The notes beneath the pieces were generated by a model. It had not been told where the DNA came from, did no database searches, and saw nothing but the letters and a program-made list of their open reading frames with translations. A stretch of DNA of 64,000 bases from Escherichia phage HMD-6. The stretch lies in the sequence record PQ505080.1; one strand, written 5' to 3'. Position numbers and translations under genes: made by a program. Shown piece after piece: positions 5,599 to 24,266 of this stretch; positions within the stretch are counted from its first letter, which is position 1; every line of letters begins with the position of its first letter.

Positions 5599-5979
5599 AT
5601 GGAACTTAAAGATTGGTGCATAATCACCTTTGTGTGGGACATTGACGGCTTTCCTGATCAAACCATGCGTGTTGTTTTAGACAATGAGACGTATGAAATG
5701 CGTATGCAATGGAATGAGAGGGATGAGTCCTGGTGGTTATCTCTTGGTCCGGTAGGTGACAGTCCTTTAGTAACCAGAAAAGTAACAGCTTGTCAAGATA
5801 TTCTAGACGGACTGCATTACAGAGACGATTTACCGAAAGGTAGATTGATGGTGCTGTCGTTTAAAGACGATCAATATTGGGGACGGGTTGGAAGATACAA
5901 CCTTGGAGCAAGATCTGAGCTGCAACTTGTATACGGTACCCCAGTTGATCTTTACAAGGAACAGCAAGGGTTAGAATAA
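5599..5979 (+). CDS. hypothetical structural protein
   Basis: 126-aa ORF with AGGGGGA RBS, tightly packed in the baseplate module. Confidence 0.55.
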   Translation: MELKDWCIITFVWDIDGFPDQTMRVVLDNETYEMRMQWNERDESWWLSLGPVGDSPLVTRKVTACQDILDGLHYRDDLPKGRLMVLSFKDDQYWGRVGRYNLGARSELQLVYGTPVDLYKEQQGLE

Positions 5980-6977
5980 TGGCAGAGTACAGACGTAGAA
6001 CATGGCGACTGTTGTTTGGTCGTCCTGTAGAGCATGGCGGTAAATCAAAAACCAATATCCCAAAATCTGTTGAAAAGAAAGGAGAGAGTGATTCCGGAGT
6101 TTATGAGATTAGCTCGGACACTGGTGCTGCCAATATAGAGTTTGACATACAAAAGGACAATACCAAAGAGCCAAACAAAGGCTATGTGACAGTTTACAAC
6201 CTGTCTGACGATACAGTTAACTATCTAGATATGCATCAAGCTGATGCTCTTGCAGTTATGTTTGAGGCTGGCTATGATAATGAGAACCAGTTGATATTCT
6301 CTGGAACTGTAGAGTTTGTTGAGGACAGATGGGAAGGCCCGACCAGAAAAACTAAGTTCATCTTTGGGGATGGCACTGAGAACATCATTAAGTGCCAAAG
6401 CACAAGATCTTATCAGAAAGGTACACCTCTGAACTCTGTGCTTAATGACCTACTGAAGGATATGAACTTGCCAAAAGGCAGGGTTGTTGGTTTTGGAAAC
6501 CAGACTTTGCAATACTCTATGGCTTTCTCTGGAAACACTGCAGAGAACCTCCGCAGGTTTGCAAGGCTGACCAACTCGACGTTTAGCGTTCAGGATGGGG
6601 CTTTGTATTGGACCAAGGTTGGAAAAAGGTTCAAGGATTCTGTATTTGAAATAAGTGCAGAGTCTGGGATGCACGGATCACCTACTCCTAAAAACCCAGA
6701 ACCTGCTAAAAAACGAAAAGCTAAAGCTGCTGCGAAAGGTGGCACAAGTAAGAAAAAGAAAAACCCGAGAGAGGATGTTGGTCTTACTGTAACCACATGT
6801 CTCAACGGAGCTATCCTCCCAGAGTCCACCATTTATCTTAAAAGCAGGCAGTACACAGGCTTCTATAAGGTGATCACAGTGCATCATAAGGGCACCATAG
6901 AAGGTGGTGATTACACTACAGAGCTTGGCCTTGGGGAAACAGTGGGTGGAGTTGTTGACAAAACTGAGGAGGTATAA
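5979..6977 (+). CDS. putative baseplate hub protein (gp27/gpD-like)
   Basis: 332 aa, start overlaps the upstream stop; sits between the tape measure and the spike gene; Lys-rich internal linker 'KKRKAKAAAKGGTSKKKK'. Assignment by synteny only. Confidence 0.4.
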   Translation: MAEYRRRTWRLLFGRPVEHGGKSKTNIPKSVEKKGESDSGVYEISSDTGAANIEFDIQKDNTKEPNKGYVTVYNLSDDTVNYLDMHQADALAVMFEAGYDNENQLIFSGTVEFVEDRWEGPTRKTKFIFGDGTENIIKCQSTRSYQKGTPLNSVLNDLLKDMNLPKGRVVGFGNQTLQYSMAFSGNTAENLRRFARLTNSTFSVQDGALYWTKVGKRFKDSVFEISAESGMHGSPTPKNPEPAKKRKAKAAAKGGTSKKKKNPREDVGLTVTTCLNGAILPESTIYLKSRQYTGFYKVITVHHKGTIEGGDYTTELGLGETVGGVVDKTEEV

Positions 6978-7654
6978 TGGCAATAAATAGGAAAGATGCT
7001 GCTGTAAGATCCTTTATAGAAAAAATAATGAGGGACTACCACACCAGTATCAGGGCTAGAGTTGTCAGTGTAGATTACAGTATCCCCTCCGCAGCAGTGC
7101 AGCCAATAGCTGAAACCACGTTTGATGACGGAGATGTTGAGAGATACCCTCTTATCTATGATGTGCCAATCCAGGTGATGTCTGCAAACAGTGGGAAGGC
7201 AAGGTTAACACTTCCTATTAAGGCTGGAGATGTTGTAGGATTGCAGTTTTCAGAGAGAAATGAAAACAATAATGATGATCAACAAACTCACGGCCTGTTT
7301 CCGGGGTGGGCAATAACCTCTGTTCATTCAGACTCTAACGCTCTGCAGATCGATCCTGATAATGTAGAGTTATGGAATGATAGGGTTTATTTTAAGCTGA
7401 CACCTTCTGGTGATTTTGAGCTTCAAACACCCGGTGGGACATTACGGTGCGACAGCAGCGGGGAGTTTTCTTTCACCAACGGAGCTGCCAATTTACGAGC
7501 TGCTGTGGACGGAAATATTAGAATGAATGGTGCCACAATAGACCCATCGGGCAGAATCATAACTGCTGCTGGTGTGGATTTGGACTCATTCTATGCAGAA
7601 TATAAAGGTCATACTCACTCTTGCCCTGATGGTGAGACAAGTGGACCGCACTAA
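6977..7654 (+). CDS. baseplate central spike protein (gpV/gp45/gp5-like)
   Basis: 225 aa; C-terminal tip 'GHTHSCPDGETSGPH' contains the HxH motif typical of metal-loaded phage spike apices; follows the hub-like gene. Confidence 0.55.
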   Translation: MAINRKDAAVRSFIEKIMRDYHTSIRARVVSVDYSIPSAAVQPIAETTFDDGDVERYPLIYDVPIQVMSANSGKARLTLPIKAGDVVGLQFSERNENNNDDQQTHGLFPGWAITSVHSDSNALQIDPDNVELWNDRVYFKLTPSGDFELQTPGGTLRCDSSGEFSFTNGAANLRAAVDGNIRMNGATIDPSGRIITAAGVDLDSFYAEYKGHTHSCPDGETSGPH

Positions 7655-7666
7655 TAGAGGGCTTGC

Positions 7667-22044: not shown

Positions 22045-22077
22045 ACCTTGTAGAGATTTTCATACCGGAGGAGTGAC

Positions 22078-23568
22078 GTGGCTAAGTATGGATTGACAGA
22101 GGCTGGTTTCGTTATACCAACTCTAAATGACCTGATCGTTGAAACTAAGCAAAGCCTGATCCGTGCTTTTGGCGAAAACTTCAACGTACAAAGTAACTCC
22201 GTTGCAGATAAGCTGACCACTATCTTCAACGAGCGAGAGTATCAACTTATTCTTATGGCAGCATCTGTATACGCATCGCAGACGCTGTATGGGGCAGAAG
22301 GTATTTACCTTGATGAACTTCTTGGAAGGCAAGGTATTTACCGGAGAGGCCGTTCTAAATCATCAGGTACTTGCCAGTTGACAATTAACACAACTGTCCC
22401 GTACAATATGATTTATGATTCCAAAACCTACACGCTGGACAGTGGCAACTTTGTTCTTAGCAGCGACGTGCAGGTGGCTGGAAATCTTATTGCTCACAGA
22501 ATAAACGCTCCAGATCTAAGAATTGGTAAATACAACTTTCAAATTACCAACCAGGCAGATGGAAGTATCAAAACAAAAAGTCTGGTTTTAACAGATAAGT
22601 CTCTGGACTCTTCTGATTTACCAAGCTTTTACGGCGAGATTAAGCAATTCATTGTAGATAATACAACCTTGTTGAACGACGATCTAATTCAGATAGATAT
22701 GTTGACAGGAACGTTGTGGATAGGATACAATTCGAATCTTGATCAAGTTGGGCTTAATAGCAGAGTAGATTTCAGAGTATCCCCGATTGTAGGTGAAAGA
22801 ACTATCACCCTGGATGTTATCGCTAACGAGGCAGGTGAGCTGTCAAGAGAGGCAGAAACTGTAACAACAATGTCGCCTACTCCAAGCGGATTTATCAAAC
22901 TTACCAACCGAGAAAGATTCAATGATGGCAGGGATGTTGAGAAGGACTCAGAGTATCGCTTAAGAGCTTCCAGCACTAAGCAGTTGACATCTAAAGCTAC
23001 TCGCCCTGCAATCCTTAGCGCTGTGAGCGAAGTGAAAGGTGTTGAGAAAGTAAGAGTGTTCTCTAACAACACCGATAAAACAGATGCGAAAGGTATACCA
23101 CCTTACAAGTTTCAAGTGGTAGTGTTCGGTGGTGCAACAGAGGATATTTGTCAAGCGCTGTATCAAACCATAGCTTGCACAAATAGAACTTATGGGAATA
23201 TCTTCTACGATATTACCACATCAGACGGTCAGACTGAAAGGATTTATTATTCTAAGGCAAACACTTACCGCCTGGATATGAGAATTACCTACTCAGGTGC
23301 TGCGCTTTCTACTACCGAAAAAGATGCCATTACAGAGGCTCTTTTGCAAGTTGTTAACGGCTTAGATGTTGCCGATACGTTGTATAATATCCAATTGGTA
23401 GGTGCTGCATCGGCTGCTGTGTCAATAGGCAGATTTAATAGACTGGTAATTCAAGTTAAACCAGTAGGAGCTTCTGATGAAGCTTACACTACAAACGATA
23501 TTGTTGCGAACATGACCGAGGTATTTGACCTCGACGAAAGTAATATAACTTTCCAACAAACTATTTAA
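22078..23568 (+). CDS. baseplate J-like protein (gpJ/gp6/gp47 family)
   Basis: 496 aa; N-terminal 'GFVIPTLNDLIVETKQSLIRAFGENFNV ... LYGAEGIYLDELLGRQGIYRRGRSKSSG' matches the baseplate_J pattern (from memory). Confidence 0.6.
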   Translation: MAKYGLTEAGFVIPTLNDLIVETKQSLIRAFGENFNVQSNSVADKLTTIFNEREYQLILMAASVYASQTLYGAEGIYLDELLGRQGIYRRGRSKSSGTCQLTINTTVPYNMIYDSKTYTLDSGNFVLSSDVQVAGNLIAHRINAPDLRIGKYNFQITNQADGSIKTKSLVLTDKSLDSSDLPSFYGEIKQFIVDNTTLLNDDLIQIDMLTGTLWIGYNSNLDQVGLNSRVDFRVSPIVGERTITLDVIANEAGELSREAETVTTMSPTPSGFIKLTNRERFNDGRDVEKDSEYRLRASSTKQLTSKATRPAILSAVSEVKGVEKVRVFSNNTDKTDAKGIPPYKFQVVVFGGATEDICQALYQTIACTNRTYGNIFYDITTSDGQTERIYYSKANTYRLDMRITYSGAALSTTEKDAITEALLQVVNGLDVADTLYNIQLVGAASAAVSIGRFNRLVIQVKPVGASDEAYTTNDIVANMTEVFDLDESNITFQQTI

Positions 23569-23579
23569 GGCGGCGAGAT

Positions 23580-24266
23580 ATGGCAGAGATTAAGTCGGAT
23601 GTCAACCACATCCACACTCTGCCAGATTTTGTTCAGGGAGGTCTTGACTACCTGCCTGGAGATTTTCTGGCTGAGAAGGTTAATTTAGTCACATTCTTAA
23701 CCGTGTACCTTAAAAGGTTGGAGAATGTTGATAAGATGCTGGTAGGTTTGGCTGAAGGAAGACTGCTTAACAATGCCAGCGGAAGATACCTTGACGAAGT
23801 TGGTAATCAACTTGGTATTCTTCGGAATGGGCTTTCAGATGCGGATTTTCGTGCTACCCTAGTTATTCAGCAAGCAGCAGCATCAAGGGGCGGGACTCGC
23901 GAAGATGTCATCTCCACATTGCGACAATTGTTCGGAAGAGATAATTTCGATACGTGGAAAGGTGACAACTTCAGATTTGACATAAATATTAGGAAAACTT
24001 GCTTTGACATATTACGGTCCATAGACCAGATCTTAGATATGCTGCCATTGCCTTGTCATTTGCGTCTTACAGAATCGCAAGGGCAAGCTTTTGGTTTTGA
24101 AGGGGACTCCACAGCTCTTGGCTTCGGATCAGTATGGGAAGAAAACCAGTTCGGAGTTGGTGGGCTGGCTACTTTGCTGTATGTTCCTGACGTAAGACCT
24201 GATTGGGACACCACAACTATTTATTGTGAAAGTATTACAGTAAACGCAACTAGGCAGGAGGGTTAA
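23580..24266 (+). CDS. baseplate wedge protein (gpI/DUF2612-like)
   Basis: 228 aa directly after the J-like gene; 'YLPGDFLAEKVNLVTFLTVYLKRLENVDKMLVGLAEGRLLNNASGRYLDEVGNQLGILR' resembles gpI-type proteins. Confidence 0.5.
   Translation: MAEIKSDVNHIHTLPDFVQGGLDYLPGDFLAEKVNLVTFLTVYLKRLENVDKMLVGLAEGRLLNNASGRYLDEVGNQLGILRNGLSDADFRATLVIQQAAASRGGTREDVISTLRQLFGRDNFDTWKGDNFRFDINIRKTCFDILRSIDQILDMLPLPCHLRLTESQGQAFGFEGDSTALGFGSVWEENQFGVGGLATLLYVPDVRPDWDTTTIYCESITVNATRQEG

Follow-up and report, generated by a model that had tools for sequence, protein, structure and literature searches.

What has parted the baseplate genes of Escherichia phage HMD-6, and what kind of genes lie in the gap? In the window that we analysed (64,000 nucleotides of record PQ505080.1, one strand), a first-pass annotation had placed hub-like, spike and gp25/W-like genes at 5979-8383 and J-like and I-like wedge genes at 22078-24266, and had read the genes between them as a large, atypical insertion of fibre genes that may reflect module acquisition. 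Comparative analysis reveals that the interval 5979-24266 holds the genes for the baseplate and adsorption apparatus of a Vequintavirus, i.e. an rV5-like myovirus: it is collinear with rV5-like E. coli myoviruses of this genus at 93-95% nucleotide identity, it is matched by 125 phage records (at least 111 of these spanning 80% or more of the query, with identities of 90-99%), and in EmilHeitz (Bas49) the correspondence holds gene by gene with protein identities of 95-100%. Three transcription units make up the cluster: 1) the genes for the tube initiator, plug, hub, spike and sheath initiator, three fibre genes and the gene for a 110-residue protein, ending at a terminator at 16474; 2) a self-contained four-gene cassette at 16565-21972; 3) the wedge genes and further fibre genes. 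By its gene content the second unit is a complete siphovirus-type tail-tip cassette. The three units, a plastic junction between the sheath-initiator and wedge genes, a match between the cargo of this junction and an extension of the sheath initiator, and a complete, selected cassette of siphovirus type are, taken jointly, very probably described correctly; for the account as a whole, which also covers the origin and working of the cassette, we estimate a probability of about 0.7.

Profile searches relate the products of the second unit to components of the siphovirus tail tip (Table 1), namely a distal tail protein (Dit), which is the second Dit-like protein in the cluster, a gpL-like protein of the DUF2163 or 'hub 1' type, a DUF6950 protein in the position of lambda gpK, and a J-like central-fibre protein that corresponds to rV5 gp37. 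The distal tail protein fold, the gpL/DUF2163 fold and, in the J-like protein, the N-terminal hub, Ig/FN3 and tail-tip domains were recovered. Between its hub and Ig domains and its tail-tip domain the J-like protein contains a coiled-coil stalk in which four degenerate repeats, each of about 55 residues, lie at residues 751, 813, 864 and 918. The repeats, which had already been remarked upon in the terminal 1279-residue product of this unit, exist at the protein level only, as Tandem Repeats Finder detected no DNA repeats in the gene. For the gpL-like gene we took the ATG at 17157 as the start, the open reading frame (ORF) itself opening at a TTG at 17142. With the Dit-like protein as sole query, a homologue search recovered near-identical sequences only, and a profile including siphoviral homologues was needed; apart from the DUF6950 protein, the small cassette proteins match no Pfam family at E<=0.01; and the PDB holds no chain closely related to any cassette protein, the best match of the J-like protein being lambda gpJ. 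Against the NCBIfam model lambda_TipJ the latter scores 149 bits, the cut-off being 1950, which makes it J-like rather than an ortholog of lambda J.

The closest siphoviral counterpart that we compared in full is JenK1 (Nonagvirus; cf. CAjan and Seurat in Nonagvirus/Seuratvirus), whose gp17-gp20 are collinear with the four genes and encode proteins of 196, 194, 144 and 1042 residues, against 196, 183, 141 and 1279 in the window, with the J proteins aligning from residue 48 onward. The same four genes also lie 3' of the tape-measure gene in the siphoviruses Cruim01 (Pseudomonas), K21lambda1 (Klebsiella) and 1240 (Vibrio). Among 58 IMG/VR loci with enough flanking sequence, a Dit-sized ORF lies directly upstream of the gpL-like gene in 50, and an ORF of at least 500 residues, the size expected of a tape measure, two genes upstream in 46. 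In some siphoviral IMG/VR contigs (two contigs, match at about 10001-10500) the gpL-like gene is contained in an ORF of about 390 residues. This fits a Dit-gpL fusion, which would explain why the phrog_2048 profile has 390 positions and why the window protein matches only its second half.

The cassette differs from its siphoviral relatives in several respects. In JenK1 it sits directly 3' of the tape-measure gene and forms the tip of a non-contractile tail, whereas in the window it belongs to a contractile-tail phage and has no adjacent tape-measure or tube gene; its upstream neighbors are a fibre gene and the gene for the 110-residue protein, and the only tape-measure gene, a myoviral one, ends at 4592, 12 kb upstream. 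The stalk of the window J-like protein is about 240 residues longer than that of JenK1, and the last ~130 residues of the two proteins are only about 25% identical. The window gpL-like protein lacks the last ~12 residues of its siphoviral homologues, with their conserved G-S-x-K-D-A-P-x-F-T-Y tail; a contact that only non-contractile tails require may have been lost here. Compared with the lambda tip (gpM, gpL, gpK, gpI and gpJ), an equivalent of gpI is absent. Lambda gpL contains a four-cysteine iron-sulphur site; the window protein has only two cysteines, hence this site cannot be present. The DUF6950 protein has a conserved cysteine, whereas inspection by eye found no catalytic histidine; its homologue in Cruim01 is annotated as a 'putative peptidase', and a search for an NLPC_P60 domain returned no match even at E<=10, DUF6950 being the sole match.

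The cassette is bounded by signals of its own (Table 1). That the unit is promoter-led had been recognized correctly, a terminator and then an extended -10 promoter-like site preceding it, but its nature as a siphovirus-type tail tip had not. The window contains six copies of the nonamer TGGTAAAAT, an extended -10 element (at 1413, 16526, 22036, 33476, 53198 and 53344), all of them on the plus strand, against 0.83 copies expected. The three copies that we inspected, at 1413, 16526 and 22036, each lie shortly 5' of the first gene of a structural operon, the first of these being the chaperone/tape-measure operon, and the nonamer is probably the core of the phage's late promoter. As it is common to the cassette and to the chaperone/tape-measure and wedge operons, the cassette would use the phage's own promoter class. 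An automatic promoter scan returned 34 sites, against 34.3 in shuffled sequence, and with no excess there the promoter calls rest on the enriched motif and its position. We also considered whether the two intergenic regions flanking the cassette represent a target-site duplication; this was rejected, as both the terminator core that they share and TGGTAAAAT recur elsewhere in the window, and the common elements are the phage's standard signals.

The cassette is under strong purifying selection. In comparison with PMBT16, a more distant Vequintavirus, the ratios of nonsynonymous to synonymous substitution rates (dN/dS) are 0.03 for the Dit-like, 0 for the gpL-like, 0.05 for the DUF6950 and 0.15 for the J-like protein, with dS ranging from 0.26 to 0.56; the gpL-like protein is identical at a dS of 0.33. 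In the J-like protein the N-terminal 650 and C-terminal 280 residues are 98-100% conserved, and all variation, including insertions and deletions, falls in the stalk at residues 651-950. The rV5 version, gp37, was found weakly in purified virions by mass spectrometry (MS), with 4 peptides, 5 spectra and 4.2% coverage, including one good tryptic peptide.

To understand the provenance of the cassette we examined its distribution, inspecting the phage records and IMG/VR relatives as samples. The gpL-like protein is found in 344 phage records, which fall into two discrete groups: 117 at 99% identity or more and 227 below 60%, with none between. The sampled members of the first are nearly all rV5-like genomes of 129-143 kb (one is a 1.4-kb fragment record), and those of the second are genomes of 30-83 kb; likewise, of 310 IMG/VR relatives the 80 best come without exception from contigs of at most 65 kb. 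When loci from seven other myovirus lineages were searched with TBLASTN, the cassette was absent from those of Seunavirus, Mydovirus, Avunavirus, Henunavirus, Certrevirus (phiTE), Phapecoctavirus and Plateaulakevirus. Among the samples inspected, Vequintavirus thus appears to be the only contractile-tail lineage with the cassette. Vibrio phage Direpillow8, whose 129-kb genome matches part of J, was considered as a second such myovirus and rejected, as it is a T5-like siphovirus. When the eight myovirus lineages are compared, the cassette is the one part of the cluster that is clearly a lineage-specific acquisition; its history would be simplest if it had been acquired once, from a Queuovirinae-like siphovirus.

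The remainder of the cluster specifies a baseplate of the simple contractile type seen in Mu, P2, Pam3 and phiTE. We recovered a tube initiator, a plug, a trimeric hub, a spike with OB-fold and beta-helix, a gp25-like sheath initiator and a wedge pair, of which we take the larger protein to be the counterpart of T4 gp6/TssF/P2 J and the smaller that of T4 gp7/TssG/P2 I. The spike retains an HxH motif (HTH at residues 211-213, in GHTHS at 210-214) at its C-terminal apex. These seven core proteins are encoded in the same order in phi92 (Stephanstirmvirinae) and phiTE (Certrevirus), whose baseplates have both been solved by cryogenic electron microscopy (cryo-EM), and most of them match solved chains directly. 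A remote-homology check that had been set beforehand for the genes at 5979-8383 accordingly relates all three to solved hub, spike and sheath-initiator chains of phiTE and phi92, and the wedge genes likewise match chains of both, so that their J-like and I-like labels are fair. All the earlier coordinates and gene calls hold, including the three fibre-type genes in the gap; the stated order after the tape measure also stands, except that the tube-initiator and plug genes, which lie between, had been omitted.

Table 1. Genes and predicted regulatory signals of the baseplate and adsorption-apparatus cluster (window positions).
Feature	Coordinates	Strand	Evidence
Tape-measure gene, myoviral, the only one here	2253-4592
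Intrinsic terminator after tape-measure gene	4605-4626	+	9-bp stem, 6 G-C pairs, then T run
Tube initiator, Dit-like first ring under tail tube	4674-5585	+	Pfam Dit_like 1.5e-22; position of phi92 gp135 and phiTE tube initiator
Baseplate plug/spacer (Ig-like)	5599-5979	+	Pfam Pam3_gp18 8e-19; position of phi92 gp136
Baseplate hub (trimer)	5979-6977	+	phiTE hub 9cuy_X 7e-109; phi92 gp137 1e-51; phrog_196 'baseplate hub'
Central membrane-piercing spike	6977-7654	+	PF18352 (N-terminal domain) 1.4e-9; phiTE puncture protein 5e-62; phi92 gp138/3pqi crystal structure 2.5e-18
Sheath initiator (gp25/P2 W-like)	7667-8383	+	phiTE 9mjn_d6 3e-61; phi92 gp139 6e-15; Pam3 gp21 0.003
Fibre/adaptor protein, 222 residues, Tail_spike_N domain	8393-9061	+	Pfam PF18668 2e-10; phrog_7760
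Conserved 'tail protein', 865 residues	9063-11660	+	phrog_2871
Variable fibre, 1479 residues	11696-16135	+	N-terminal Tail_spike_N; GTA_spike_fiber domain 1113-1317
Protein accompanying this fibre allele, 110 residues	16135-16467	+	phrog_1361; absent from PMBT16 (other fibre allele)
Strong intrinsic terminator closing inner-baseplate/fibre operon	16474-16493	+	8-bp stem, 7 G-C pairs, UUCG loop, T run
Cassette promoter-like site	16506-16534	+	TTGCGT, 17-nt spacer, TAAAAT, TGn before (extended -10); read from sequence
Second, siphovirus-type Dit, 196 residues	16565-17155	+	phrog_1302 'distal tail protein'; JenK1 gp17 31%
gpL-like/DUF2163-type 'hub 1' protein, 183 residues	17157-17708	+	phrog_2048; JenK1 gp18 39%
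DUF6950 protein, lambda gpK position, 141 residues	17708-18133	+	Pfam DUF6950 1e-33; JenK1 gp19 45%
J-like central-fibre protein, 1279 residues (rV5 gp37)	18133-21972	+	Phage_Tail_Tip 2e-38; Ig_J_second 1e-30; Ig_J; lambda gpJ 8iyk_J 1e-27; JenK1 J 48%
Intrinsic terminator closing cassette	21979-22000	+	9-bp stem, UUCG loop, T run
Wedge-operon promoter-like site	22016-22044	+	TTGACT, 17-nt spacer, TAAAAT, TGn before; 10/12 consensus matches; TGGTAAAAT
Large wedge protein (T4 gp6/TssF/P2 J-like)	22078-23568	+	Pfam Baseplate_J 2e-9; phiTE 'wedge 2' 1e-158; phi92 gp145
Small wedge protein (T4 gp7/TssG/P2 I position)	23580-24266	+	phiTE 'wedge 1' 1e-66; phi92 gp146 5e-23
N4 gp65-like fibre (non-contractile tail sheath protein domains), directly after wedge genes	24266-26338	+	Pfam TIM-barrel_NCTSP 3e-80

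The usual order of such genes, with the wedge genes directly 3' of the sheath-initiator gene, is broken in the window by 13,695 bases and eight genes, in keeping with the distance first given. To determine whether this is the scar of one insertion we compared the junction across relatives. It is empty in phiTE, where the sheath-initiator gene adjoins the wedge genes and a terminator is annotated between them, and also in Av-05 (Avunavirus), pEp_SNUABM_01 (Henunavirus) and W70 (Septuagintavirus). It contains one gene in phiA009 (Plateaulakevirus), three genes in 5.7 kb in SPLA5a (Seunavirus), about 8 kb in nieznany (Phapecoctavirus) and the fibre genes gp140-144, between sheath initiator gp139 and wedge genes gp145/146, in phi92; a split smaller than that of the window also occurs in Mydovirus. 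Split and unsplit states are interleaved in a neighbor-joining tree built from 1036 ungapped columns of the two wedge proteins, the hub and the spike: unsplit Av-05 groups as sister to split SPLA5a with a bootstrap of 88%, and Vequintavirus lies between phiTE and pEp_SNUABM_01, both unsplit. Gain, loss or exchange has therefore taken place repeatedly, and the junction is an operon boundary and a plastic site for the turnover of receptor-binding cargo. The arrangement that had been called atypical is shared by at least 111 rV5-like records and is ordinary for the lineage. A single large insertion of fibre genes is contradicted by the range of cargo (zero to eight genes) and its distribution on the tree; the suggestion of module acquisition survives for the cassette at 16565-21972, not for the interval as one insertion.

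An alternative is that the split is the ancestral, ordinary gene order, with nothing inserted and the unsplit genera having lost their fibre genes. Three points speak for it: the 222- and 865-residue proteins of Vequintavirus have homologues at this junction in Seunavirus and also in Phapecoctavirus, which is distant; the outgroups are split; and the genome of unsplit Av-05 is smaller (121 kb). It may hold for the first two genes in the gap, but not for the cassette, which is absent from the seven other myovirus lineages compared, has relatives only in siphovirus-sized genomes and forms a separate transcription unit; as an explanation of the whole gap we regard it as unlikely.

The state of the junction is mirrored in the sheath initiator itself. 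In all three aligned unsplit genomes this protein stops at a conserved W-N-x-W motif, at 175-177 residues, whereas in all four aligned split genomes it continues for 28-65 extra C-terminal residues, independently of phylogeny. The window protein has an extension of about 65 residues, its tail comprising residues 172-238, within which an NPIPVGSL motif is common to Vequintavirus and Seunavirus. For Mydovirus K45PH128C2 the annotation is unusable, nearly all coding sequences being marked as pseudogenes or partial, and we used TBLASTN coordinates: the match to the sheath initiator reaches residue 202, which fits the pattern of extension with cargo. In this Klebsiella phage about 2 kb (10744-12815) also separate the spike and sheath-initiator genes, which are adjacent in all other relatives. 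The solved phiTE baseplate shows the sheath initiator adding, by its C-terminus, a fourth helix to the N-terminal bundle of a tail fibre (PMC11972413), and by analogy the extension might serve as a docking element for the products of the genes immediately downstream. The match between extension and cargo suggests a simple rule for plugging new fibres into such baseplates, useful for host-range engineering.

Four genes, at 8393-16467, follow the sheath-initiator gene with nearly no spacing. Homologues of the 222-residue protein occupy the same junction in Seunavirus (41% identity) and, by its C-terminal half, in Phapecoctavirus (43%). The 865-residue protein has full-length homologues of 33-35% identity at this junction in both genera and no match in PDB or Pfam searches; it is possibly a scaffold of the fibre network. 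The 1479-residue fibre is allelic: the PMBT16 version has 1270 residues and is 80% identical, with a dN/dS of 0.25, and the 110-residue protein encoded after it is possibly a chaperone. The 222- and 1479-residue proteins have the Tail_spike_N anchor in common with the branched tailspikes TSP1-4 of CBA120 (Ackermannviridae) and gp66 of phage G7C, the Pfam definition of this domain resting on CBA120 TSP1 and G7C gp66, and this suggests that the fibres dock on one another. However, the likeness stops at the anchor; no XD-type branching domains were detected in the window proteins. Residues 602-724 of the 1479-residue fibre comprise a 120-residue segment that is 33% identical to part of the JenK1 lateral tail fibre gp22 (locus 14064-14432), which hints at wider exchange between rV5-like phages and the siphovirus group of JenK1. 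On the far side of the gap, the N4 gp65-like fibre gene lies 3' of the wedge genes in the window and in Av-05, and a 43% homologue lies 5' of them in Phapecoctavirus nieznany (locus 15387-17438); fibre genes therefore move across the wedge pair. According to a preprint (10.64898/2026.04.02.716166), the NGR polysaccharide is bound by fibre proteins of this type, with phi92 gp142 as the example, and the window fibre at 24266-26338 would be of the same NGR-binding type.

These observations lead us to propose that the cassette was horizontally transferred from a Queuovirinae-like siphovirus into an ancestor of Vequintavirus, and that its products would now assemble into an appendage based on a J trimer, with the gpL-like and Dit-like proteins as a cap. 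The appendage would sit off the tail axis on the baseplate, adding a conserved binding function to a multi-fibre apparatus, while the central axis would stay filled by the myoviral hub and iron-tipped spike, and the tail of the sheath initiator would dock the products of the genes just downstream. As the axis is occupied by a tube initiator, hub and spike like those of phiTE and phi92, the spike with its iron-binding apex, a siphoviral tip could not easily be axial, and the conserved C-terminal domain of J, its stalk of variable length and the invariant gpL-like protein favor an off-axis position. The latter features fit a rigidly constrained appendage that presents a conserved binding domain at variable distance. 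Taken by itself, we rate this off-axis placement at somewhat under even odds. That the particle bears a fully assembled siphovirus-type tip (Dit ring, gpL-like trimer, J trimer and long stalk) as an extra organelle is a more tentative proposition still. The solved baseplates of phiTE and phi92 give no information on the place of the cassette, as the Dit-L-DUF6950-J genes are missing from phiTE and from the phi92 relative nieznany.

Several points weigh against this reconstruction. No solved structure includes the cassette proteins; cryo-EM of Bas49, for which data are available as EMD-51868, and of Bas54 showed density for only three fibres near the baseplate, this one being unreported (PMC12143355); and genome-wide receptor screens give only the NGR polysaccharide and the lipopolysaccharide core, none attributable to the J-like fibre (PMC8594841; 10.64898/2026.04.02.716166). 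The MS evidence for rV5 gp37 is thin and the three small cassette proteins went undetected; since that study found only 19 proteins in all, the absence of these three is uninformative. The direction of transfer is derived from distribution alone, and the identities of 31-48% imply that the donor is unsampled or the event old.

The same proteins could instead form a true central fibre on the axis; the myoviral hub and spike would then have the gpL-like trimer and the Dit-like ring beneath or around them, and the phage would be a myovirus whose tip is of siphovirus style. The homologues of the cassette proteins are axial in every solved siphovirus (lambda, T5, T1, JBD30 and R4C), and for the fibre class of Vequintavirinae a resemblance of the N-terminus to that of central tail fibres was pointed out by the RBPseg authors (PMC12143355). 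Yet here the axis is already filled by a tube initiator, hub and spike that closely match phiTE/phi92 chains, the spike keeps an HxH iron-binding apex for membrane piercing, which argues for an exposed spike, no central fibre was reported for Bas49 or Bas54 (PMC12143355), and the cassette lacks a tape measure of its own; we consider an axial position improbable. Least probable of all is a mere passenger, i.e. a decaying remnant of illegitimate recombination or a set with a non-structural function (assembly aid or exclusion factor), which would account for the unassigned place in the virion, the weak MS support and the lack of an attributed receptor phenotype, but is at odds with four reading frames intact in at least 111 genomes, a dN/dS of 0-0.15 at a dS of 0.26-0.56 with an invariant gpL-like protein, a promoter of the class found before the wedge and tape-measure/chaperone operons as well, and one high-quality tryptic gp37 peptide from purified virions.

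If the off-axis appendage is real, the virion would unite two machines for host engagement that are distinct in their evolution, with the one of siphoviral type acting as an off-axis adhesin or trigger and not as a DNA conduit. It would likewise represent a natural case of an entire multi-protein tail module moved between contractile- and non-contractile-tail phages and kept for a new role; a conserved siphovirus tail-tip set inside a contractile-tail phage is in any event unusual. That fibre genes part the baseplate genes of phi92 and rV5 could already be seen from published genomes and from the paper on the phi92 structure, and parts of the J-like protein had been recognized: GenBank records label it 'tip attachment protein J' or 'central tail fiber J', and Kropinski et al. 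recorded hub-like HHpred matches for rV5 gp37. The literature that we searched nowhere describes the four genes as a complete cassette, nor does it mention their synteny with siphoviruses, their separate transcription unit, their confinement to Vequintavirus or the selection acting on them; what is new is thus the reading of this 5.4-kb unit as a siphoviral tip cassette within a myoviral baseplate cluster. Phages like rV5 rank among the most common myoviruses of E. coli, and their broad host recognition makes them therapy candidates; which of their genes build which fibre has been called 'far from clear' (PMC8594841). The cassette reading changes the target to be sought in density maps from a simple trimeric fibre to a conical Dit/hub/J assembly, and yields concrete predictions on stoichiometry and deletion mutants.

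Two further observations concern the records and the region around the cluster. Eighteen records named as 'Campylobacter phage', with Campylobacter jejuni as the host label (e.g. MG065655 and MG065635), are about 93% identical to the window across the whole of 5979-24266; these host labels may be wrong, or the stocks mixed. Upstream, just 5' of the tail assembly chaperone gene (1465-1938), an ORF of 431 residues at 96-1391 on the plus strand is confined to 4 of the 117 matching records of Vequintavirus (JEP1, A147, A135 and PDX) and is lacking in EmilHeitz. Faint matches of its product to a treble-clef zinc finger and a restriction-endonuclease-like domain suggest a mobile gene of homing-endonuclease type that occurs sporadically.

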